The notes beneath the pieces were generated by a model. That model made no database searches and had not been told where the DNA came from. It saw only the letters and a list, made by a program, of their open reading frames with translations. Below, piece by piece: positions 1,184 through 36,168 of a stretch of 36,849 nt of DNA. This DNA comes from a virus (taxonomy: Duplodnaviria > Heunggongvirae > Uroviricota > Caudoviricetes), in the IMG/VR virus record IMGVR_UViG_2529292835_000026, positions 1 through 36,849 of that record; one strand, 5' to 3'. Numbering within the stretch: the stretch's first letter is position 1; each line of letters begins with the position of its first letter. Both the position numbers and the translations under genes were made by a program.

Positions 1184-1666
1184 ATGGAAGAACTTCACTT
1201 TGTTTACATCAATGCAAATGGTCGTATCGGTGTTCACTCTATACAGGGCATCAGTTATAGCGAAAATCATATACAGGGCATTTGTAAGAACACCGATCGA
1301 ATAAAAACCTTCCGAAAAGACCGCATTCTTAAACAGTACGATTCACCAGAACAAGCCATTCAGGAATGCGCGTCATTCCTCCCCGAAAACTACTCACATC
1401 TCACTAAGCAGTCTGGTCCGAAAAAAAATACATTCGATGTGTGTTTCACCGGATTTAAGAAAGCAGATAAAGAAAGATTGGTTGATAAGGCGAATGAACA
1501 AGGATTAACGGTAAGAACCTCTGTAACCCAAAGCCTTCAGATGCTCTGTTGCGGTTACAATGCAGGCCCATCAAAAGTATCGGCAGCCAGGATGAAAGGC
1601 ACAATCATCATAGATGAGCCTGGCTTTATACATTTTCTTGAAACGGGTGAGATCCCAGATGAATAA
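1184..1666 (+). CDS. Small WYL-domain + BRCT-domain protein (160 aa), prophage accessory gene
   Basis: AAGAGG Shine-Dalgarno 8 nt upstream. N-terminus ends with the WYL-domain signature IKTFRKDRI; C-terminus (VCFTGF...GPSKVSAARMKGTIIIDEPGFIHFLE) has BRCT-like pattern resembling the LigA BRCT domain. Confidence 0.6.
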   Translation: MEELHFVYINANGRIGVHSIQGISYSENHIQGICKNTDRIKTFRKDRILKQYDSPEQAIQECASFLPENYSHLTKQSGPKKNTFDVCFTGFKKADKERLVDKANEQGLTVRTSVTQSLQMLCCGYNAGPSKVSAARMKGTIIIDEPGFIHFLETGEIPDE

Positions 1667-7119: not shown

Positions 7120-7635
7120 TCAGAGGCCGAGGGCGTTGCGGTGCGCTTCCATCAGGTCCACACCGTCCACAATTTCCACCATGTTGATAAGGTCCACTTC
7201 ATAGAGCACCTCACCATTGATAGTCAGCTTCGCGTAACTGTTGGTACTGGTCACTTTGGTGGTGTTGCTTTCGCCCGTCTTCCACTCGCCGGAGTCCACT
7301 TCTTTGTGACGTCCACGCACCACAAGCTCCACGGCCTGTACTTCCCCGGTATCATCACGCTGGATAGAGCCGGTAAAGCGCAACTGGATGCCATCCACCG
7401 TGGCTTTGCCCATCTGTTTAAACAGCAGCAGTTCAGTACCACCAATGGAAAATTCTGTGTCCAGAGCACTGTCATCAAGCCCCAGATCCACATCCACTGC
7501 ACCCGGCATTCCGCCGCCGCGATACTTCTCATATTTGCGGGTGAATTTCGGCAGCGTCAGCGACTCTACGATCCCCTGCCAGTTGTTCCCGTCGTTAAAC
7601 AGGTTCAGATGTTTTAATTTGCGTGGTAAAGCCAT
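7120..7635 (-). CDS. FII: Tail tube protein (gpFII-like)
   Basis: 171-aa ORF directly downstream of the sheath gene. Confidence 0.9.
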   Translation of the reverse strand: MALPRKLKHLNLFNDGNNWQGIVESLTLPKFTRKYEKYRGGGMPGAVDVDLGLDDSALDTEFSIGGTELLLFKQMGKATVDGIQLRFTGSIQRDDTGEVQAVELVVRGRHKEVDSGEWKTGESNTTKVTSTNSYAKLTINGEVLYEVDLINMVEIVDGVDLMEAHRNALGL

Positions 7636-7644
7636 GTTGTCCCC

Positions 7645-8817
7645 TTACGCGCTGACCTGGCTGGCAAAATTCACCAGGTACTGATCGGTGATGCGCTGGC
7701 GCAGCATCAGATTTTCAAGTGGCGGCACTGGCGTGTAGTCATAGTCGATGGTGAGTTTTCCGGCTTTCAGCGTGTCTTTGTCGTTCACCGACTCATCCAG
7801 CCAGCAATCACCACCAATGAGATAGCCCTGACTGACCAGGCTGCGCATTTTGGCGCGGATACCTTCGATAATGTCGCGGGCCAGCGACGGGTTAAGCGGT
7901 TTATCCACTGCCCACATGTGCGCTTCTGCCATTGTGTCCGTCAGCACCTGCGCCGTGCGGGTGTAGTTTTCGAAGGCAAAGAGCGGGTCATCACTCAGGC
8001 AGCGGGAACCCCAGAAGCGGAAACCGTCTTTACGCACAAGCGTGGTGACGTCGTTCTGGTTCAGCAGACCTGCATCGGTTGCCGGGTCCTGCAGATCCCA
8101 GAACACATCTGCAGAAATTCCGGTGACACCGTTCACGCCCACGTTGGACAGGCTTTTGTGCCACCCGGTCTGCTCATCAATTTTGGCACGCAGACCAAGC
8201 GCACGGGCGGTGGCATATGCCGTTGCTTCGGCATTCAGCACCGTGTCCCAGCCAGTAAAGTCGGGCCAGATCAGCATTCCTTCGCGCTGGCTGAAGTTTT
8301 CACGGTAAGTGATCGCCTCCTGTACCGTCTTGCAGCCATACGCTGACAGGTAAGCAAACCCACGCAGGCTTTGCGCCACGCTCAGCAACTCAGTCGCAAC
8401 GGCTTTGTTATCGTGACCTGGCACGCCGAGAATGCGCGGTTTAACGCCGAGCTGTGACTGGGCAGATAGCAGGGCTTTCATGCCTGTTTTTTTACCTTCA
8501 GCAGTCACAGCGCCGATGATATTGGTCGTGGTTTCGTCTTCCGTTTCACCCTGCGGCACACGCACAACAACGGTCACGGGTTTTGCCTGGTCAGCGATGG
8601 CATCCAGCGAACGGGCCAGAGTACCGGACTCACCCGCTTTACCGCTGGCAGTCAGCACATCAGTGATCAGCACGGGTTTATTAAGAGGAAACATTTTTGC
8701 ATCGGCATCATCGCCCGTGCAGACCATACCCACGATGGCGGTGCTCACCGTGGTAATGGATCGGGTGCCTTCGTTGACTTCAACAACGCGCACCCCGTGG
8801 TGGTAATCCTGAGCCAT
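7645..8817 (-). CDS. FI: Contractile tail sheath protein (gpFI-like)
   Basis: 390-aa ORF at the head of the FI-FII-E-T-U-D operon. Confidence 0.9.
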
Positions 8818-12617: not shown

Positions 12618-12963
12618 TCTCTGCTCCTGTTGATACGGAAAGGGAAACAGGTACACCGTTATTCCGCCGCCCGGTCAGCTCCACCACCATAGAACCGTCA
12701 AAGTTGCTGTTGATGGTGATGGAATCCAGCGTCAGCCGTGGCTCCCAGCGACTCAGCGCCACATACACTGCCGACATGACCTGCAGGCGTAATGCCGGAT
12801 TTTGTGGCTGATCTATTAAAACCGACAGGAGGGAACCATATTCCCGGCGGGCAATGCGGCTACCCTGCGGTGTCAGCAGAATGTCCCGCACCGACTGGCG
12901 CAGATGATCAATATCAGTAATGACTTTGCCGCTGGTATTGTTCATCCCGCTATAAAGCGTCAT
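12604..12963 (-). CDS. W: Baseplate protein gpW-like
   Basis: 119-aa ORF with ...REYGSLLSVLIDQPQNPALRLQ... matching gpW. Confidence 0.85.
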   Translation of the reverse strand: MTLYSGMNNTSGKVITDIDHLRQSVRDILLTPQGSRIARREYGSLLSVLIDQPQNPALRLQVMSAVYVALSRWEPRLTLDSITINSNFDGSMVVELTGRRNNGVPVSLSVSTGAENGSD

Positions 12964-13538
12964 ACCGGGCCTCCGGTTGTATCGCCGCCTTTCAGGACAC
13001 CAGTATGCTGATGCGCATCAACCACAATCCCGTTAGAACTCATCGCACCGCCGCCCTGGGTAACGCCCCCATTGATCACTACTTCGCTGTTAATTCGCGT
13101 GCGGTCAGCCTCCAGCACAAACTCACTGGTTTTCATGGTGATATTGTCAGCGGCCTCAATGACCATTGATTTGATGCCCCTGACATACCAGCGCCCGGTG
13201 GCGGGTTCGTATTCAAACCAGCTACCGTCAGGATGTTCTGTCACGCAGGCGTCCGCCGACGTCGACGGTGGTGCGAACTGATTCGAATAGACAGCGGGCA
13301 GCGCAAAGGCAGTCTCCAGATTACCGCCCAGACTCAGCAGCACCACCTGCTCACCTTCCGATGGTCGCCACCATGTGCGGGCATTACCGGCACGCAGCGT
13401 CAGCCAACTGATCCAGTTAGTTTCAAGGTCGCCCGTTTTCACCCGGCAAAGCCAGTTCTCCCGGTCCACTTCGGTGACTACACCAGTGCGGATCAGATTG
13501 GTGATAAGGCGCATGATTTCGGTTAATTGTGCGTTCAT
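12960..13538 (-). CDS. V: Baseplate spike protein gpV-like
   Basis: Start set at MNAQLTEIMRLITNLIRTG by alignment to the P2 gpV N-terminus; the longer ORF 5' extension would overlap the promoter dyad. Confidence 0.85.
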   Translation of the reverse strand: MNAQLTEIMRLITNLIRTGVVTEVDRENWLCRVKTGDLETNWISWLTLRAGNARTWWRPSEGEQVVLLSLGGNLETAFALPAVYSNQFAPPSTSADACVTEHPDGSWFEYEPATGRWYVRGIKSMVIEAADNITMKTSEFVLEADRTRINSEVVINGGVTQGGGAMSSNGIVVDAHQHTGVLKGGDTTGGPV

Positions 13539-13585
13539 GCTGACAATATTGTTTCTTAAACTGAGTGATTGCATCGAAGTGGTTT

Positions 13586-13603
13586 TGTATGATTGCAGGC
13601 ACA
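13586..13603. promoter_or_regulatory. Candidate Ogr-dependent late promoter element (TGT-N12-ACA) upstream of V
   Basis: TGTATGATTGCAGGCACA about 57 bp upstream of the V start codon. Confidence 0.5.
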
Positions 13604-13626
13604 AGTTGTAACTAAGGAGGCGATTG

Positions 13627-14064
13627 ATGAAATCTTGGAAAAACCGAGGATTTAAAAAAAGGGTTCTTGAATATGTTTACTGTTTCTCCGCTGCTCCATT
13701 TTTAGCCATGTTCTACACGTTGTCAGAAAACCAGCTGACAATGTTTATAATTTTCTTCACTGTGAGTTTTTATCTCACTCTGATGGCATCCGTTTTTTTA
13801 ACAAAACGAGGATTTAACAAAGTATTCAAAGAATTCTTTAATTTATTATGGAACTATGAAACGGCCTTCGTTTTTTGCTATGGCCTTTATACTTATCTTT
13901 ATAGAATTGATGGGCAGAAAACTTTATCAAACCTCCTTACCATTATGTTTTCAGCTCACCCATGGACACTTATTTTCGGCATCGGACTCTTGGTTTTCAC
14001 AGTAATTTTCAGGTTTGCTCTGAGTGTTGCTGACTTGCTAGTTGAAGTTAAGTCAGATATATAA
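13627..14064 (+). CDS. Small polytopic membrane protein (about 145 aa), moron between V and S
   Basis: AAGGAGG 6 nt upstream of ATG at 13627 (the ORF track begins 3 nt earlier at a TTG); AT-rich; about four hydrophobic helices; opposite strand to the flanking late genes. Confidence 0.7.
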   Translation: MKSWKNRGFKKRVLEYVYCFSAAPFLAMFYTLSENQLTMFIIFFTVSFYLTLMASVFLTKRGFNKVFKEFFNLLWNYETAFVFCYGLYTYLYRIDGQKTLSNLLTIMFSAHPWTLIFGIGLLVFTVIFRFALSVADLLVEVKSDI

Positions 14065-14088
14065 TGAAACAATACAACCATAGAATTT

Positions 14089-14538
14089 TTAGCTATTTAC
14101 CAGCCAATCACATAATATATCCTTGGTGAAATCTAAAACATCTTTGTTGCTTCCTAACAATTTCCGCTCTGCATAACGGACCTCAGGTCCTTTGCGACTG
14201 ACGCGATCACGCAAGCCGTAATGGTGAACGCGTGCAATGCGCTGCACCTTACCTTCAAACTGTACGCTGGCAGAATCAGCGCTGGCGGCAGTTTTCAGGT
14301 ATTTTGTGGTACGAAGCTTTGTAAACATCTGGCGTTTGATGCGCCCCTTTTTACTGCGTGCTGTTACCCGTCGCGGTTCATAGCTGCTGCCGTCAGGGTT
14401 GCGCTGCATCCTGATATTCTGCTGCTGTGTCCGGCGCAGTTCCTGCGCCAGCTGACGCATCATGCGAATTCTTGCGGCTGGCTCCAGATTCGCCAGCAAG
14501 GCACTCAGCCAGTCGTCCACTTTCTGCAGTTCAGCCAC
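14089..14538 (-). CDS. S: Tail completion protein gpS-like
   Basis: 149-aa basic ORF downstream of R. Confidence 0.85.
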   Translation of the reverse strand: MAELQKVDDWLSALLANLEPAARIRMMRQLAQELRRTQQQNIRMQRNPDGSSYEPRRVTARSKKGRIKRQMFTKLRTTKYLKTAASADSASVQFEGKVQRIARVHHYGLRDRVSRKGPEVRYAERKLLGSNKDVLDFTKDILCDWLVNS

Positions 14539-14983
14539 GTTTCACCGTCCACATTTCTTCAGGTTCATCGGGTTCCGTTATCGCTTCAACGCTCGACACA
14601 CTTCCGTCAGTGCTGACCAGCACACGTTCCGTCAGTTGCAGGTTCAAGCTGATATCACAGACATCGTTGCGCAGAATATCCACCTCAAAGGTGAATAGTT
14701 TTTCCCGTAACGCCGGGTTATTGATGGCATCGGGCTGGTTATCCCTCAGCCACAGCAAAACCGGGGCCATCAACAGATTCTGGTCGCCGCTGAAATCCTC
14801 AATCACCGCGTTCAGGGTGTAACGGTACTCCCACGACATGGAGCTGGCCCCCGTGGCAACCAGCGAACCGTTATCCACAAACAGATGCAGTTTGTCCGGG
14901 TTATTGCGGACATAAGGCACCGCTTTATTGAGGGCGTGGCGCAGGGATTGTGGTTTGTTCACTGTTTCGCTCCTGACAGGCAA
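14531..14983 (-). CDS. R: Tail completion protein gpR-like
   Basis: ...LHLFVDNGSLVA...YRYTLNAVIEDFSGD...LLWLRDNQPD... aligns with P2 gpR. Confidence 0.85.
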   Translation of the reverse strand: MPVRSETVNKPQSLRHALNKAVPYVRNNPDKLHLFVDNGSLVATGASSMSWEYRYTLNAVIEDFSGDQNLLMAPVLLWLRDNQPDAINNPALREKLFTFEVDILRNDVCDISLNLQLTERVLVSTDGSVSSVEAITEPDEPEEMWTVKRG

Positions 14984-15215: not shown

Positions 15216-15486
15216 GTTTCAGTTCCTCGATCCGGTGTTGTCGTTGTCTCAGCAGCGCGCTGGTCTGTTCTGATTCGGCATAGAGCCGCGCCTGCTCCCG
15301 GTTATTGGTTTCAGTCAGAATGGACAGGCTGATAAGCTGGCTGTTGCTCTTTGCCAGTGCCTGGCTTTTGCTCTGCAGCTCGTCTGCCTGCGTGCTAATG
15401 GTCTGGCTGGCATCAGCCAGCCGCCACGCCTGCCAGCCCAGCGCCGCCAGTAATAACGCCAGCACAACCAGCAGCAACCGGTTCAT
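15058..15486 (-). CDS. Inner-membrane spanin (LysB/Rz-like)
   Basis: N-terminal signal anchor MNRLLLVVLALLLAALGW followed by a coiled-coil-rich periplasmic domain. Confidence 0.75.
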   Translation of the reverse strand: MNRLLLVVLALLLAALGWQAWRLADASQTISTQADELQSKSQALAKSNSQLISLSILTETNNREQARLYAESEQTSALLRQRQHRIEELKRENEDLRRWADIPLPADIIRLRERPALTGGAAYRQWLSASDAVSAGSDSAAH

Positions 15487-15860
15487 GCTGCTACCTGTTG
15501 CGCCATCTGATTACGGGTGATCCAGAAGGCAATAACGGTCAGTAGATAAAAGACCAGGGTAATAGCCCACCCCGTCCAGGCGAGACTTACGACAATCAGC
15601 AATCGCATCACCCAGCTGATAAATACGTTTTCTTTTCGGGTTATTGTCTTCAGCAAAGATGCCCTCAACTCCTGCCAGAGCGGGCCATTCTTAATTAACG
15701 CAGCCAGTGCTACCGGAATTACCGCCCATGTCAGCAGACAGGCTACCCAGACACCGGACGCTGCCAGTACCGGAAAAATCCCCTGCGGATACACCATTGC
15801 TTCGATTAACAGCCCCATCCATAACATCAGAAACAGCCCGCTGATTACTTTCTTTTTCAT
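15483..15860 (-). CDS. LysA-like lysis membrane protein
   Basis: Multi-pass hydrophobic ORF; start set at MKKKVISGLF, 1 nt after the endolysin stop. Confidence 0.65.
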   Translation of the reverse strand: MKKKVISGLFLMLWMGLLIEAMVYPQGIFPVLAASGVWVACLLTWAVIPVALAALIKNGPLWQELRASLLKTITRKENVFISWVMRLLIVVSLAWTGWAITLVFYLLTVIAFWITRNQMAQQVAA

Positions 15861-15861
15861 T

Positions 15862-16374
15862 TCAGTTTGCTCCCTGTAAACACCAGGCCATCTCCCGCGC
15901 ACGGCGGTTATCCAGCCCCTGATTAAACACACCTTTCACATAAACCCAGCGCGGCAACTGTCGGCACGCATCCGCCCAGCGCCGCTGATTGAGCAATTTC
16001 ACCAGCGTGGAGCTGCAGGCATTGCCTGTCCCCACGTTGAAGGCAAACGACACCACCGAGTCATACACCTTTTGTGGCGGCTGTTGCTTCACACATCTTT
16101 CCAGCGCCCGCTCCACACGCAGCACGTTGGAGATCAGCCCTTCCGCTGCCTGTCGTTCCGTAATGGTTTTGCCTGGAATGACGCCAGATGTATTACCAAT
16201 GCCGTCGGTCCAGACACCCGCGCTGCACTGATACGGCTGCAGACGACAGCCTTCGTAATCGGCAATCAGTTTCAGCCCCTCCACGGAGGTGTGAAGCTGC
16301 TGAAACCCCGGCAGCGTGGCAGCAATAGCCAGCACGGCCCCGACAAGGCAGCGTTTAACGATTGATGGATTCAT
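15862..16374 (-). CDS. Endolysin (gpK position), possibly signal-arrest-release type
   Basis: Sits in the P2 K position between holin and lysA; weakly hydrophobic Gly/Ala-rich N-terminus (CLVGAVLAIAATLPGF) followed by a soluble catalytic domain. Confidence 0.75.
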   Translation of the reverse strand: MNPSIVKRCLVGAVLAIAATLPGFQQLHTSVEGLKLIADYEGCRLQPYQCSAGVWTDGIGNTSGVIPGKTITERQAAEGLISNVLRVERALERCVKQQPPQKVYDSVVSFAFNVGTGNACSSTLVKLLNQRRWADACRQLPRWVYVKGVFNQGLDNRRAREMAWCLQGAN

Positions 16375-22873: not shown

Positions 22874-23545
22874 TTAAAAACCAAGCTCATCTCTGATTCT
22901 TGGGAATTTTTTCATTACTCGAATATCAGTTAATAAATGCCAACGCCAAAAAACAGAAAATGGATATGATACATTACACATTGGCTTTAGCTTATTCTTG
23001 GCCTCTTGGATTTCTTGTTCTGTGCTTCGATCACTGACAAGTTTCATTCTCCAACCAGTAAAGTAAAACAATTCATCTTGTAACTTCTCTGAGAGATTTG
23101 CTCTTGTAATGCCCCTCAACCCCGTACTCGAAGAGTTAAAACACTTATCTAATAATTTGACTGTATTTAAAACCTTTCTACTTGGTCTTTTTCTTCTTGG
23201 GTATACTTGAACACCACTCGTTATAGCGTTCCCTGCGAGATGAACAATCTCACTGAAAACATCAACATCACTCTTTGTGCAATCAAGTAAGTTTTCAAAA
23301 GAATCACTTTTAATACTATTGCATCGACTGCAAGCTAAAAATAGATTGTTCCAATCATATTTGAGCTCATCAAGATCACGATGTGGAATAAAATGTTCTA
23401 TCTCTGGATCCATAAGATTACCTTGCTCACAGAGATAACATTTTCCATGAAATATTTCGTCTAAAGCATTTACAACTGTTTTATGGTTATATACTTTTCT
23501 CGACAAGCATTGAGGTGCAGGAATATTTCTAGTAACATTAAACAT
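22874..23545 (-). CDS. HNH endonuclease, Septu PtuB-like
   Basis: HGKCYLCE ... EIEHFIPH ... NNLFLACSRCNSIKS = HNH motif; overlaps the upstream ATPase gene by 8 nt; AT-rich. Confidence 0.75.
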   Translation of the reverse strand: MFNVTRNIPAPQCLSRKVYNHKTVVNALDEIFHGKCYLCEQGNLMDPEIEHFIPHRDLDELKYDWNNLFLACSRCNSIKSDSFENLLDCTKSDVDVFSEIVHLAGNAITSGVQVYPRRKRPSRKVLNTVKLLDKCFNSSSTGLRGITRANLSEKLQDELFYFTGWRMKLVSDRSTEQEIQEAKNKLKPMCNVSYPFSVFWRWHLLTDIRVMKKFPRIRDELGF

Positions 23546-24791
23546 CGTCTTCCCTTTCGCTATAATCTAAATATTTACTCTTAGCGATCATAAAAGCTGC
23601 TTTTGAACTTTTATCAAGAAAATCAATACTCTTCTGTAACGTTTTCATTATAGAATGAAATCTATCGTCGAAGACATTATTTTCTACTAAAGTCATTAAT
23701 TCTTTAACTAATGCATTTAGCTTATCCGAAGATACATCCTCACCCAACAATCCCTTTATAATTGCTGTGTAAGAATACAATGATAAATCACCCATCTGAT
23801 CCAATGTTGAGAGATTAAATATAATCGCATCAGATACTGATTGGATTACGAAAGGTGAATGCGTAGAAACAATAAATTGTATTTGCGGAAAAGATGATGA
23901 AAAAAAACTAAATACTTTCTTTTGCAATGTTACATGAAGATGAGCATCAATTTCATCAATAAGTACTATCCCTGTCATATCATGTTTTCTGATTTTATCA
24001 AGCTCTGCTTTTATCAATAAATCAGTATAAATAGAAAGAATTGATGAAAAACCAGATGACAACTTATCAAGTCCAAATGGTTCCTTATTATTTTGTAAAA
24101 GATAGATTTTCAACTTGTCGAGATCAAAATCCATTCTAATACTTTCATCTTCAAAAAGTTCTTTTAAGTCATCATTAATACTCTCAATAATATCAAAGGC
24201 TCTTTTATAGTCATCATCCTTGCCCACTCCCTTACTGACTAAAGCATAATTCCACAATGTAACTATGTATCTTTCAAAATACATACCAGCATCAATCTTA
24301 GAATTATTTCTCTGTGCGTTCCCATACTCAGTTAACAACAAATCGAGGCTGCTAATCTTACCATCATTTTTTATTTTCGCTTCTCGAATAGCAGGAAATA
24401 ATCTTATAATTGATTTTTTCTTTTTTGCAGCAACCCTGAAATCAACCACATCATTAAAAGTAATATCAAAGCTCTCAAATTCTTTTAATTTTTCTTTCAG
24501 TCTCTCAATTTCTTCGTTTAAATAGCTATAATTACCATCCCCTCTATTTGAATACTTTAAGTTTTCTTGACTGGAATTCAATTCCTTTTGTAGCTGCTCC
24601 TTAGTATAAGGATCATGTGAATTAATCGATTTTTCTATAAACTCATAAATATTCTCGATCAACCTAGTTTTACCAGAGCCATTATCTCCTGATATTATTA
24701 GATTCTTACCATCAAGATTTAATGTGTAAGGCTCATCGTTCCTTTTAAAGAAGATAGTTTCGATGAAATGTCGCATTATTCCTCCCGTCAT
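23538..24791 (-). CDS. ABC/SMC-type ATPase, Septu PtuA-like
   Basis: Walker A GDNGSGKT, ABC signature LSSGFSS, Walker B VLIDEIDAHLH, H-loop STHSP. Alternative start at 24776 (MRHF...) has a GGGAGGA Shine-Dalgarno. Confidence 0.75.
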   Translation of the reverse strand: MTGGIMRHFIETIFFKRNDEPYTLNLDGKNLIISGDNGSGKTRLIENIYEFIEKSINSHDPYTKEQLQKELNSSQENLKYSNRGDGNYSYLNEEIERLKEKLKEFESFDITFNDVVDFRVAAKKKKSIIRLFPAIREAKIKNDGKISSLDLLLTEYGNAQRNNSKIDAGMYFERYIVTLWNYALVSKGVGKDDDYKRAFDIIESINDDLKELFEDESIRMDFDLDKLKIYLLQNNKEPFGLDKLSSGFSSILSIYTDLLIKAELDKIRKHDMTGIVLIDEIDAHLHVTLQKKVFSFFSSSFPQIQFIVSTHSPFVIQSVSDAIIFNLSTLDQMGDLSLYSYTAIIKGLLGEDVSSDKLNALVKELMTLVENNVFDDRFHSIMKTLQKSIDFLDKSSKAAFMIAKSKYLDYSEREDDV

Positions 24792-25228: not shown

Positions 25229-25882
25229 ATGAATAAATACAAACTTTTCGCACAGCTATCAAGATATTCATTTGAAGCGCAGATTGATGATTTCGAAAAA
25301 TATATCCTAGGAGCAGGCGGCCAAAACAGAGTTGACTTATCGGAATTAAAAAAAGCATATGAAGATGAAAAAAAGAATGCTCCTGACGATTATATTAATT
25401 ACTTAGAAGACTATTATTCAGAGCAATATGATTTCTTAGTTAACATACAACCAAATATTTTTAATAAATCTGCTTTGGTATCTTTATACTCATGCTTAGA
25501 GCACAACCTAAACGACTATTGCAATATATGTCAAAGGATTGTAAACACCAATATATCAGTAACCGATTTTAATGGTGATGGCATCCACAAAGCAAAAAGA
25601 TATTTAACAAAATTAATGGATATAAACTTTGGCCTGTCACAAGAGTGGCGATTCATGACAGAGTTTAACAAAGTAAGGAATTGCATAGTTCATGCTAATG
25701 GAGACATTAAAAAAATGAGCACAGCTGTAGCCTTAAAAGATATCATTGATAAAACACCTACTCTTTCATTAAACAATGAAAATAATATAATAATCTCCTT
25801 AAATTATTTAAAAGATACTATCACAAAAATTAGAAAACTCTTTCAATGGTTATATACACATCTGGATCAATCATCGAAATGA
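25229..25882 (+). CDS. Uncharacterised 217-aa protein with HEPN-like R-x4-H motif (candidate defence/abortive-infection RNase)
   Basis: AAGGAA upstream of ATG; very AT-rich; motif EFNKVRNCIVHANGD fits the HEPN R-x4-6-H signature; no other recognisable domain. Confidence 0.5.
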   Translation: MNKYKLFAQLSRYSFEAQIDDFEKYILGAGGQNRVDLSELKKAYEDEKKNAPDDYINYLEDYYSEQYDFLVNIQPNIFNKSALVSLYSCLEHNLNDYCNICQRIVNTNISVTDFNGDGIHKAKRYLTKLMDINFGLSQEWRFMTEFNKVRNCIVHANGDIKKMSTAVALKDIIDKTPTLSLNNENNIIISLNYLKDTITKIRKLFQWLYTHLDQSSK

Positions 25883-26134: not shown

Positions 26135-27001
26135 TTAGATGGCTTTGCTTCGATATTCAATTTCTAAAATCGCCTTTGTCATTGCCGCAATAGTTATAGC
26201 TTCTACCATAGTCAATTCAGGCTTGTTCAAGCTTCCGTGTCCAGCAGTAGGTAATTTGTTACGTAAATCATAAATATCTTTAACAGCATCAATAAGATTC
26301 TTAGGTAATTTTGACATTTTTTCGAACTGTTTAAAAAAACCACCCAATGACTCATTTGCCACATTCGGGTTTTGAGTGATTTCCTTAGCCATAGTTTCTA
26401 AAACATTAGAGGCTGCGTGCAGTGCACCTGCCGGATCATTATTATCCAAGCAATTATTCATTCTATCTATTTGCTGAACGATATTTGGGTGCAATCTCTT
26501 TAAGTAATCACTAGCCAATTCTTCATTGAAATTTTTGACACTTTCAAAAACATCGCAATCTAAATAAAATTTAGGATTGACTGACATCCATGTATATTTC
26601 CAATCATTTTCTAAATTATCTTTTTCCGCAATCCGCCTGCCAGTGTCCTGATCTATCTCATCAACATATTTACACATATAATCGGCGTAGTAGTGTAAAT
26701 ATCTAAATGATATTTCTGGGCAAAAATTACTAACTGATGCAAGGCCGCCATATTCTTTTGTAGTAACTGTAGGGACTTCTTCATCACATAAAGATGAGAA
26801 AGTGGTTCTTTCCCAAAATTCGCCCAACTCTTTTTCTTTCCTAGTTGCCATACCAGCTATCATATTGATGCTTGAGAGCAAAACTACACTCTGATAGTAT
26901 CGAGGACATCTGTATGAACTAGCATATGGGCATATTGATGATGCTTTACGATTAATACGCTCTTTTTCCCACCAATTTTTATCAGGAATAATTCTTTGCA
27001 T
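26135..27001 (-). CDS. Uncharacterised 288-aa protein, candidate defence cargo
   Basis: Long AT-rich ORF convergent with the 217-aa gene; Cys-rich N-terminus (CPYASSYRCPRYY); no family recognised by eye; no clear Shine-Dalgarno at the first ATG. Confidence 0.5.
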   Translation of the reverse strand: MQRIIPDKNWWEKERINRKASSICPYASSYRCPRYYQSVVLLSSINMIAGMATRKEKELGEFWERTTFSSLCDEEVPTVTTKEYGGLASVSNFCPEISFRYLHYYADYMCKYVDEIDQDTGRRIAEKDNLENDWKYTWMSVNPKFYLDCDVFESVKNFNEELASDYLKRLHPNIVQQIDRMNNCLDNNDPAGALHAASNVLETMAKEITQNPNVANESLGGFFKQFEKMSKLPKNLIDAVKDIYDLRNKLPTAGHGSLNKPELTMVEAITIAAMTKAILEIEYRSKAI

Positions 27002-34472: not shown

Positions 34473-35489
34473 ATGACTGTCAGAAAACAGCCAAACGGTA
34501 AATGGTTGTGCGAGTGCTATCCCAATGGACGCAATGGCAAGCGCGTGCGTAAGCAATTTGCTACGAAAGGCGAAGCCATTGCTTTTGAAAGCTTCACAAT
34601 GGAAGAAGTGAACAAAAAACCATGGCTGGGGGAAAAGGAAGATCGGCGACACCTATCAGAATTAATTGAGCAGTGGTATTCCCTGTATGGTCAAACACTC
34701 GCAGACCCCAAGCGCCTCATGGCGAAACTTAGAATTATCTGTAATGGTCTAGGCGATCCCATCGCTTCAGAACTGACAGCCGGTGACTTTACGAAATACC
34801 GCGAAGCACGGTTAAAAGGGGAAGTACGAAATGAAGATGGCACGTTTATGTCGCCCGTTAAGCCCCGCACGGTAAACCTTGAACAGCGCAATCTATCATC
34901 TGTTTTTGGTACACTGAAAAAGTTGGGCCACTGGTCAGCCTCCAACCCGCTTGCTGGGCTGCCAACATTTAAAATTGCTGAGAGTGAATTGGCGTTCCTG
35001 ACCCCGGAAGAAATTAAACGTCTGCTGGATGCCTGCGCCGATTCTCAAAGCTCCAGCCTGCTTTTGATTGCAAAAATATGCCTGGCCACCGGCGCACGCT
35101 GGAGCGAAGCCGAAAACCTGCAGAGTCATCAGGTATCAAAATACCGTATCACTTATACCAAGACCAAAGGCAAGAAAAACCGAACTGTGCCTATTTCTAA
35201 GGATTTATATGAAGAACTGCCTAAGAATAGGGGGAAGTTATTCACCCCATGCAGAAAAGCCTTTGAGCGTGCAGTAAAGCGGGCTGGTATCGATCTGCCA
35301 GAGGGTCAATGTACTCACGTTCTGCGTCATACATTCGCTAGCCATTTTATGATGAATGGTGGAAACATATTGGTTTTGCGGGATATCCTAGGACATTCAG
35401 ATATAAAAATGACCATGGTCTATGCACACTTCGCCCCAGACCATTTAGAAGATGCCGTAACTAAAAATCCTTTATTTAATTTGAGGTAA
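34473..35489 (+). CDS. int: Tyrosine integrase (P2 Int-like)
   Basis: C-terminal catalytic motifs ...HVLRHTFASHFMMNGG...LGHSDIKMTMVYAHF (R...HxxR...Y). Confidence 0.9.
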   Translation: MTVRKQPNGKWLCECYPNGRNGKRVRKQFATKGEAIAFESFTMEEVNKKPWLGEKEDRRHLSELIEQWYSLYGQTLADPKRLMAKLRIICNGLGDPIASELTAGDFTKYREARLKGEVRNEDGTFMSPVKPRTVNLEQRNLSSVFGTLKKLGHWSASNPLAGLPTFKIAESELAFLTPEEIKRLLDACADSQSSSLLLIAKICLATGARWSEAENLQSHQVSKYRITYTKTKGKKNRTVPISKDLYEELPKNRGKLFTPCRKAFERAVKRAGIDLPEGQCTHVLRHTFASHFMMNGGNILVLRDILGHSDIKMTMVYAHFAPDHLEDAVTKNPLFNLR

Positions 35490-35499
35490 GTAGTAATTT

Positions 35500-36168
35500 A
35501 TGAATAGCGAACTAGAGTTACTTATAAAAATATTATTCCCTTCCCTATCTGCCATTATATCCTTATTAGGGCTTAAAACAGGGTGGACTTATAAAAAAGA
35601 CAAACTATTCACATCACGTAAAAACATTAGCGAATTTTCATATCAGATGTATAAAAGCAGTGAAGATCCGACCTTCAAAAAACTGGCGGAAGATTACGGC
35701 ATTGCTGCATTAACCAAAGATAACACATTGACAAAAAAACAAAGATTAATATTACTCAACACAACAAACCCCGTTAGCGATATAGATAATTATTCCAAAT
35801 GTCAAAGTCTAATTTCCATTACCACCCATAAAGAAATATTCGCATGGAATAAAAAAAGATATAAATACAGCATATATAGAAAATTAATAAAAATCATAAC
35901 AACTCTAATTTACTTCATGAGCAGTCTCATCGTAGCACTTCCTTTCAGTTATTCTGTTGTAGTAAGTGCTAAGATGATGGAGAAGATAAACCATCTAACT
36001 ACTTGGCAATACTTTGGTTTAAGCAGCTATTTTGTGGTATCGGGAGTAGCAATATGCTTTATCTGCCTAGATAAGCTCTCCAAGATTAAGATCGCCGAGA
36101 GATTAATCGTTTCGAATAGGCGTTTAGGCGACAAATGCAGTGGCGGCACTTTGGCGGCAGAAAGTTAA
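35500..36168 (+). CDS. Membrane protein (222 aa), cargo between int and attR
   Basis: Very AT-rich; GAGGT upstream; three hydrophobic helices (N-terminal and two C-terminal); no family recognised. Confidence 0.6.
   Translation: MNSELELLIKILFPSLSAIISLLGLKTGWTYKKDKLFTSRKNISEFSYQMYKSSEDPTFKKLAEDYGIAALTKDNTLTKKQRLILLNTTNPVSDIDNYSKCQSLISITTHKEIFAWNKKRYKYSIYRKLIKIITTLIYFMSSLIVALPFSYSVVVSAKMMEKINHLTTWQYFGLSSYFVVSGVAICFICLDKLSKIKIAERLIVSNRRLGDKCSGGTLAAES

Follow-up and report, generated by a model that had tools for sequence, protein, structure and literature searches.

A small predicted membrane-protein gene carried as an exchangeable cassette in the S-V (orf30) slot of a P2-like prophage

The stretch of DNA analysed here, referred to as the window, comprises 36,849 nucleotides of a tailed-phage genome (IMG/VR record IMGVR_UViG_2529292835_000026) and contains, between the minus-strand late genes V and S, an AT-rich plus-strand open reading frame (ORF) encoding a small predicted membrane protein (Table 1). 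A first-pass annotation made from the sequence alone had described the gene in these terms, and its account of both the gene and its setting was borne out: the ORF has a GC content of 34.7% and carries an AAGGAGG ribosome-binding site, and the flanking genes match the Pfam families Phage_base_V and Phage_tail_S. The contrast in composition is marked, with a GC content at third codon positions of 37% in the ORF and overall values of 56.3% for V, 52.0% for S and 49.5% for the whole window, and it extends over a trough of 32-39% GC at approximately 13500-14200. The ORF and S are convergent and are separated by 24 nt. The same coding sequence is present in RefSeq/PGAP as WP_024169309.1, a 'hypothetical protein' of E. 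coli 120899, the chromosome of which matches the window at 99.9% over the queried region 13000-14600 (1,601 bp); ETEC-2265 is, like strain 120899, a natural lysogen.

Table 1. Features of the S-V region (positions are those of the window)
Feature	Coordinates	Strand	Evidence
gpV baseplate spike gene, left anchor of the slot	12960..13538	-	Pfam Phage_base_V, 4.9e-18; Apex motif
AT-rich exchangeable cassette (PV region, ORF and S 3' tail)	13539..14160 (approximate)		Homology breaks
Weak candidate sigma-70 promoter, GTGATT-17 nt-TATGAT	13565..13593	+	PWM score 9.2
TGT-N12-ACA dyad, Ogr/late-activator site of PV	13586..13603		Sequence; equivalent P2 site annotation
Shine-Dalgarno element AAGGAGG	13614..13620	+	6 nt 5' of the ORF ATG
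CDS, 145-aa predicted polytopic inner-membrane protein	13627..14064 (including stop)	+	ATG 13627, TAA 14064
Variable AT-rich S 3' end, moving with the cassette	14089..14160	-	GC contrast; co-variation with cargo
gpS tail-completion gene, right anchor of the slot	14089..14538	-	Pfam Phage_tail_S, 1.9e-39

At the base composition of the ORF, the chance of a 146-codon open frame is about 2e-5 (hand calculation). The indels that separate its homologues are of whole codons, non-synonymous differences lie far below synonymous ones and GGAGG or GAGG elements comparable to that of the ORF are found 5' of the homologues; this conservation identifies the ORF as a real gene. A terminator-like hairpin within it (13717-13744) was considered and set aside, being no more than is expected by chance, and an Rfam scan of 13300-14300 returned no RNA family.

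The arrangement corresponds to a known accessory locus. The P2 reference record gives the order S, a putative terminator of the O operon, an oppositely oriented Orf30, a PV 'activator binding site' and V, with the start of V transcription annotated at the V ATG. The ORF shares with orf30 its position between S and PV/V, its variability as a non-core gene and its low GC content, and is thus cargo of the S-V 'orf30' accessory slot in a P2-like prophage. The orf30, Z/fun and tin-old regions have been listed as loci of horizontal gene transfer in P2-like phages (PMC3091744), with the variability of the orf30 locus credited to Nilsson and Haggard-Ljungquist (as cited in PMC3091744, 2010), and phage R18C carries yet another ORF in this slot (PMC6823313). 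The papers devoted to hotspots in these phages cover the gpA-gpQ (old/tin), Z/fun and int-proximal sites, not S-V (PMC9122126, PMC9519451, bioRxiv 10.1101/2024.10.15.618418, PMC13586616). The window itself carries Septu in its gpQ-gpA hotspot. The first-pass annotation had read the gene as an insertion into the junction between V and S; it is indeed accessory, but the site is not an unusual one, since it is the known orf30 locus and P2 displays the same opposite-strand layout. What is new is therefore an uncharacterised family of cargo, whereas the slot that holds it was already known.

It had also been proposed that the gene was accommodated without damage to late transcription, and this holds, as the PV dyad is complete and its distance from V is preserved. 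The centre of the dyad lies 56.5 nt from the V ATG, compared with 55.5 nt in P2, and its end lies 23 nt before the ORF ATG. The TGT-N12-ACA dyad is kept in 12/12 related loci with an intact V gene (ten that bear the family, one without an insert and one holding different cargo), with 55.5-57.5 nt between its centre and the V ATG; in 10/10 family-bearing loci of this set the cargo ATG lies only 16-26 nt past the dyad. With such spacing, the 5' UTR and promoter of the cargo must overlap PV. A consensus promoter scan found nothing on the plus strand. A weak sigma-70 candidate, the -10 element of which overlaps the left half of the dyad, has a position-weight-matrix score of 9.2, a value reached about 1.3 times per kilobase by chance; its position recurs in four loci (L004, L005, L006 and L008) and is absent from more distant ones. 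Terminator scans of the interval between the ORF and S gave no intrinsic terminator on either strand, and late O-operon transcripts should consequently read antisense through the cargo.

The content of the slot varies greatly among close relatives. Records approximately 94% identical in V and S have an S-V gap of only 68 bp in 500465-1, 4LV2017 and many Klebsiella prophages, and Cartapus, with the same identity in V and S, has a different opposite-strand ORF of 176 aa in the slot; a profile comparison of this protein, Cartapus gp14, with the ORF protein indicated that the two are unrelated. The V/S backbone was found in 1,047 of 5,426 complete E. coli genomes, just six of which hold the insert. 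Its absence from P2 and from the prophages approximately 94% identical in V and S, together with this low frequency, supports the earlier designation of the gene as a moron rather than a conserved member of the tail operon. In a sample of 48 slots, taken as evenly spaced E. coli hits having both flanks, 30 were empty and 18 held other cargo. The other cargo includes, on the plus strand, DUF6216 (in the E. coli B/BL21 lineage) and FRG genes, on the minus strand a TIR_2 gene, and further DUF5677 and hypothetical proteins. Since FRG and TIR proteins are soluble, the slot imposes neither a membrane location nor a superinfection-exclusion (Sie) function on what it carries.

Few relatives of the ORF protein could be found. 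When 1.84 billion cluster representatives were searched exhaustively with HMMER, nine proteins were recovered at E <= 1e-3, and word-indexed searches of 5.8 billion sequences gave two clusters, rising to 12 once a profile was used. The named hosts are E. coli, E. albertii, Citrobacter, Enterobacter, Cronobacter and Pectobacterium, and every entry is a 'hypothetical protein'. By these searches, the family has few members, is uncharacterised and occurs in Enterobacterales only. A scan of GTDB representative genomes produced pattern matches, none of which was confirmed as a relative, and a tblastn search of 50,697 phage records produced no match. The query had no match in Pfam or NCBIfam, in which its relatives had only scattered single-member matches at E > 1e-3; in PHROGs nothing fell below E = 0.03, the PADLOC-DB 2.0 defence HMMs yielded no family at E <= 10 and the best match in a sequence-profile search of the PDB had E = 0.33. 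Judged by these sequence comparisons, the ORF protein stands outside all of the described families with which it was compared, namely Orf30, DUF6216, RexB, LysA, YmfE, the PADLOC models, Pfam and NCBIfam.

Two motifs are conserved in the family, KExFNxLWNxETAxVFCYG (residues 68-86) and TVIFRxxLSxA(D/E)LL (residues 125-138). Lys68, Trp75, Asn76, Phe83, Leu122 and Arg129 are invariant in the alignments, and Asn72 and Tyr85 are invariant or nearly so, Asn72 being without exception in the 11-sequence alignment and Tyr85 in the 13-sequence set. The genes of the homologues are AT-rich as well, with GC contents of 31-38%. The V-S interval holds an opposite-strand homologue in Citrobacter, in 11 of 13 IMG/VR loci and in several metagenome loci, and this homologue is the single gene of the cassette at every slot-resident locus. 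Along this series, the identity of the ORF drops from 86% to about 28% while that of V drops from 87% to about 65%. A distant branch in Pectobacterium brasiliense is found elsewhere, in a non-P2 island, adjoining an AlpA-family regulator gene and a gene for an H-NS N-terminal domain, a placement that fits a mobile, host-directed accessory gene.

Comparison with an insert-free relative shows that homology is lost immediately upstream of the V ATG and is regained inside S. The last 22 or so codons of S are variable, and its last 75 nt have a GC content of 35%, compared with 56% for the remainder of the gene; the tail of S is likewise variable and AT-rich in Cartapus, with its different cargo. 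In an alignment with the locus of the Citrobacter homologue, identity is 88-98% over approximately 13500-14160 and 75-88% in the flanks, and dS is lower for the ORF (0.14) than for V (0.81) or S (0.56). The plateau of identity and the low dS of the ORF indicate that the cassette was common to the two backbones more recently than their divergence. Together with the cargo, the mobile unit thus takes in the PV region and the 3' tail of S, and it has been exchanged horizontally between backbones. The picture of a one-off insertion conveyed by the first-pass annotation has accordingly to be given up, as the family is found repeatedly in the slot on backbones that have diverged, and moves between them as a cassette.

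The selective history of the family also bears on its role. The ORF was intact in all 18 related loci examined, and dN/dS across the family is 0.11-0.35 at dS values of up to about 1.9; the closest pair of homologues has a dN/dS of 0.53, with changes concentrated in TM1-TM2, which could reflect relaxed constraint. A group of prophage remnants (L015/L016 and L029-L035) keeps codons 1-18 of V, the former PV region and an intact homologue of 156-162 aa. In these elements the remainder of V is gone, as are the tail genes down to a D fragment and the genes for the capsid and for lysis, and little or nothing of S is left. To the left of the gene lies the D fragment, where upstream sequence exists, and to the right a truncated terminase gene followed by the portal gene; in L030 the gene stands alone with integrase genes on either side, and three further loci (L036, L037 and L039) have other deletions. 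The left junction is common to the remnants and the right junctions differ. The flank from -300 to -141 is 50-71% identical among the remnants and is unrelated to that of the intact prophage L014.

The copies of the gene in these remnants have dS values of 0.29-0.84 and dN/dS values of 0.15-0.35, and their nucleotide identity is 79-88%, compared with 50-71% in the adjacent flank. The dyad provides an internal control: once V has gone the late-activator site is no longer needed, and its TGT and ACA halves are lost in five of five remnant types (intact in 0/5). The family is therefore under purifying selection and stays intact where the surrounding virion genes are lost. An intact and selected ORF in remnants without virion genes must be kept for something besides making or releasing virions, and this retention favours a host-beneficial role at the level of the lysogen, as far as can be read from sequence, over a virion function.

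The protein was described in the first-pass annotation as a four-helix membrane protein, which is likely from the hydropathy and the AlphaFold model, although a form with three transmembrane (TM) segments is also possible. In the ORF protein, strongly hydrophobic segments span residues 36-59 and 106-141 and weaker ones residues 13-33 and 70-92; averaged over the family, the strong segments fall at approximately 18-28, 39-55 and 114-132, with a weaker, aromatic and polar one at approximately 77-88. Lysine and arginine residues average 4.5 at the N-terminus, 3.6 in the loop after TM2 and 0.4 in the short TM1-TM2 loop, a distribution from which the positive-inside rule predicts a cytoplasmic N-terminus and a cytoplasmic TM2-TM3 loop. 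AlphaFold prediction with 13 sequences (pLDDT 70.9, pTM 0.60) gave helices at residues 6-28, 34-60, 64-94, 100-110 and 112-143; with three sequences the pLDDT was 47 and the model was unusable. The most likely topology suggested by the model is a four-helix bundle with both termini inside, and an alternative with three TM segments and an interfacial helix 3 is also compatible with the prediction. The inner-membrane location is itself a prediction from hydropathy, the positive-inside rule and the AlphaFold2 helices, which together give three or four TM segments. Fold searches returned only generic helical bundles.

Taken together, these data make it very probable that the ORF belongs to an accessory cassette with a membrane function exerted at the level of the host. 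The best explanation overall, to which we assign a probability of roughly 0.45, is that it is an orf30-slot cassette encoding a membrane protein that protects the lysogen, probably through superinfection exclusion; the specific exclusion mechanism, proposed by analogy, is slightly more tentative. In the lysogen, with the late operons off, a promoter that overlaps PV would drive plus-strand expression of the ORF, and H-NS would probably modulate this expression, given the GC content of 35%. During late lytic growth, occupancy of PV by the activator and RNA polymerase would probably shut the ORF off, and antisense read-through from the O operon may add to this effect. The protein would act at the inner membrane to the benefit of the lysogen, as a single-gene exclusion factor that blocks genome entry or the formation of an inner-membrane channel by incoming phages, or that alternatively targets a membrane component that phages use. 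The first-pass annotation had named superinfection exclusion or abortive infection as typical of small membrane proteins in such a slot, a reading that is plausible by analogy. Counted against the explanation are the negative comparisons with known Sie, abortive-infection and defence proteins, the purely generic fold matches, the rarity of the family, which is unlike that of a broadly useful defence, the dN/dS of 0.53 in the closest pair, the soluble cargo found in some slots, the lack of a convincing promoter and the Pectobacterium branch outside the P2 slot. A wider proposition, that the family is a new single-gene inner-membrane Sie family and the S-V slot an overlooked defence hotspot of P2-like phages, with cargo silenced by H-NS in the lysogen and off under late transcription, is at present doubtful.

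The evidence for selection at the host level would fit equally well another membrane function in lysogenic conversion, such as immunity to a pore-forming bacteriocin or tailocin, tolerance of envelope stress or service as an accessory subunit of a host transporter. The immunity proteins of pore-forming colicins are small inner-membrane proteins with three or four TM segments, whose genes lie within an operon in the reverse orientation, and the ORF resembles them in size, predicted topology and placement. The conserved polar residues Lys68, Asn72, Trp75, Asn76, Glu78 and Arg129 also suggest a specific interaction site and not a mere anchor. On the other hand, no match to immunity or transporter families was obtained in Pfam or NCBIfam, no partner toxin gene adjoins the ORF and the neighbouring hotspots of this prophage family are mostly anti-phage (PMC9122126, PMC9519451), as the Septu system in the window illustrates, so that a function of this kind seems rather unlikely. 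A less probable possibility still is an abortive-infection or otherwise toxic effector resembling RexB of phage lambda, which would depolarize or permeabilize the inner membrane and kill the cell before phage release. The protein resembles RexB in size and predicted topology, and low GC content with probable silencing by H-NS would suit a potentially toxic gene (bioRxiv 10.64898/2026.09.05.749240), but hhalign gave a probability of 0.2% for homology to RexB, the single-gene cassette of all slot-resident loci offers no RexA-like sensor partner and the soluble loops are not long enough for the detection of a phage cue. Superinfection exclusion is ranked above such an effector for the related reason that a stand-alone 145-residue bundle with minimal soluble loops is suited to little cytoplasmic sensing.

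A function in the lytic cycle, in the timing of lysis as an antiholin-like protein or in tail assembly as a helper encoded on the other strand by chance, was also considered, since lysis and tail genes adjoin the ORF and P2 LysA, a multi-TM protein, has a similar length of about 141 aa. LysA is, however, unrelated to the ORF protein (hhalign probability 0.2%), and a LysA-like ORF is already present at 15483-15932. The ORF lies outside the lysis cassette on the opposite strand, runs antisense to the late transcripts, is missing from the complete phage genomes that are the closest relatives, and is kept in remnants incapable of producing virions or of lysis; a place in the tail or lysis programme is very improbable and was rejected on the grounds of its variability, its antisense strand, the LysA result and its retention in remnants. 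Hardly any credence can be given to the notion that the ORF is a fortuitous or decaying frame in non-functional AT-rich filler that hitch-hikes with the prophage. Rarity, the lack of known domains and the dN/dS of the closest pair could be cited in its favour, but the improbability of the open frame, its integrity at every locus examined, the low dN/dS across the family, the invariant motifs and the better conservation of the ORF than of the flanking remnant DNA largely refute it.

P2-like prophages, more than 1,500 of which have been catalogued (PMC13586616), are among the commonest in E. coli, and many new defence systems were discovered in their old/tin and Z/fun hotspots. About four in ten of the sampled backbone slots at S-V hold cargo, including TIR, FRG and several membrane proteins, and the present family offers a cheap and well defined candidate for envelope-level phage resistance or other lysogenic conversion, as well as a test case for divergent cargo genes that share a late promoter region. 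Its retention in remnants, together with the TIR, FRG and membrane cargo of the slot, makes it a reasonable candidate for experiment; there is little in it to surprise a P2 specialist, and if the gene has no phenotype it will be one more hypothetical moron.

The S-V slot resembles the P2 hotspots old/tin (gpA-gpQ) and Z/fun in being a short, AT-rich locus of high turnover between conserved genes (PMC9122126, PMC9519451, bioRxiv 10.1101/2024.10.15.618418), and differs from these defence hotspots in that its cargo here is a single gene with a putative defence role. RexB of phage lambda, a four-TM inner-membrane protein of 144 aa that needs RexA, is close to it in length and is likewise prophage-encoded, but is unrelated in sequence and works with a partner, whereas the ORF forms a single-gene cassette. 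HK97 gp15, P22 SieA and T4 Imm are inner-membrane superinfection-exclusion proteins. Kunado/YmfE of the e14 prophage is reported as an H-NS-silenced membrane protein that is likely to act in superinfection exclusion (bioRxiv 10.64898/2026.09.05.749240). The ORF shares with this group a small, stand-alone, AT-rich and prophage-borne gene and a product that is predicted to be polytopic and would be expected to act in the lysogen; the likeness to HK97 gp15, P22 SieA and T4 Imm is one of description, and a comparison of the ORF protein with YmfE/Kunado gave an hhalign probability of 0.4%.

The closest parallels in position are other occupants of the slot. P2 orf30 has the identical location on the opposite strand, a similarly low GC content (34%, compared with 35% for the ORF) and a predicted membrane product, but Orf30 is a protein of 261 aa with three hydrophobic segments, in contrast to the predicted four-helix bundle of 145 aa, and hhalign gave a probability of 0.2% for homology between the two. 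The DUF6216 gene of the P2-like remnant in E. coli B/BL21 occupies the same slot in the same orientation, as verified in a BL21 derivative, has a GC content of 33% and encodes a multi-TM protein, which with 268 aa and three hydrophobic segments differs from the ORF protein and belongs to a different family (hhalign 1.4%). In BL21, this gene is reported to be bound by H-NS, as shown by a ChIP peak, and to be released from repression in an hns stpA double mutant (bioRxiv 10.64898/2026.09.05.749240); by analogy, it may serve as the best available model for the regulation of the ORF cassette.

The slot between tail genes S and V that houses the membrane-protein gene is a variable cargo site of this prophage backbone. 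In E. coli, about 18 of the 48 slots sampled were occupied, and the varied single-gene cargo includes TIR- and FRG-domain proteins; examples from E. coli chromosomes are genes for DUF6216 (L022), TIR_2 (L023), FRG (L024) and DUF5677 (H94) proteins, of which the TIR gene shares the strand of the late genes and the other three face the opposite way. One metagenome prophage (L040, 3570-5960) carries what is probably a multi-gene version of the slot, in which a homologue of the membrane-protein gene is accompanied by about 2.4 kb of extra sequence before S.

The gene also persists in a lineage of degraded P2-like remnants from metagenome and IMG/VR contigs (L029-L035, L015 and L016), in which all that is left is V codons 1-18, the former region of the V late promoter (PV), the gene for the membrane protein, a shortened terminase gene and the portal gene, followed by a cargo hotspot in the two contigs that reach far enough (L015 and L016). 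In these remnants the TGT-N12-ACA activator dyad of PV has decayed; in contrast, blocks including TTATGGCAT and TATATATG are kept upstream of the ORF and may represent the cargo's own promoter. Outside any P2 context, a distant homologue was found in Pectobacterium brasiliense (L019, L020 and L021, at about 7270-8460), on an island that also holds an AlpA-family regulator. This homologue lies about 490 bp downstream of a gene for a 79-81-aa protein consisting of an H-NS N-terminal domain only, possibly an H-NS antagonist, which may bear on the derepression of such AT-rich genes.

Further accessory genes of the window are listed in the table. The gpQ-gpA (old/tin) hotspot, an AT-rich region (31-34% GC) directly past the portal gene, contains a complete Septu defence system identified with PADLOC, together with 217-aa and 288-aa ORFs that have no Pfam match and may be extra defence cargo. 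The 149-aa hydrophobic ORF of the lysis cassette is presumably a candidate LysA-type protein of this phage. The 222-aa ORF, for which neither Pfam nor PADLOC gave a match, occupies the int-att position, a minor defence hotspot of P2 (PMC13586616).

Accessory features of the window and their database matches
Feature	Position	Strand	Location	Match
160-aa ORF	1184-1666	+	43% GC stretch near gpD end of prophage	PADLOC, weak, candidate system PDC-S48, limited to the C-terminal part, 1.7e-07
149-aa ORF	15483-15932	-	lysis cassette, between endolysin and Rz-like genes	
Septu system	22874-24791	-	gpQ-gpA hotspot	
PtuB, 223-aa HNH protein	22874-23545	-	Septu	PADLOC, 2e-82
PtuA, 417-aa ORF	23538-24791	-	Septu	PADLOC, 7e-122
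217-aa AT-rich ORF	25229-25882	+	gpQ-gpA hotspot	PADLOC, weak, DRT-associated HEPN model, 5e-05
288-aa AT-rich ORF	26135-27001	-	gpQ-gpA hotspot	
222-aa ORF, 32% GC	35500-36168	+	directly downstream of integrase (34473-35489)	

Where V is intact, the distance from the centre of the PV dyad to the V start codon is 55.5-57.5 nt in all 12 loci compared (13538-13603 in the window and the equivalent sites among L001-L017). This spacing implies a V mRNA with little or no leader, in line with the P2 annotation, which puts the start of V transcription at the V ATG.
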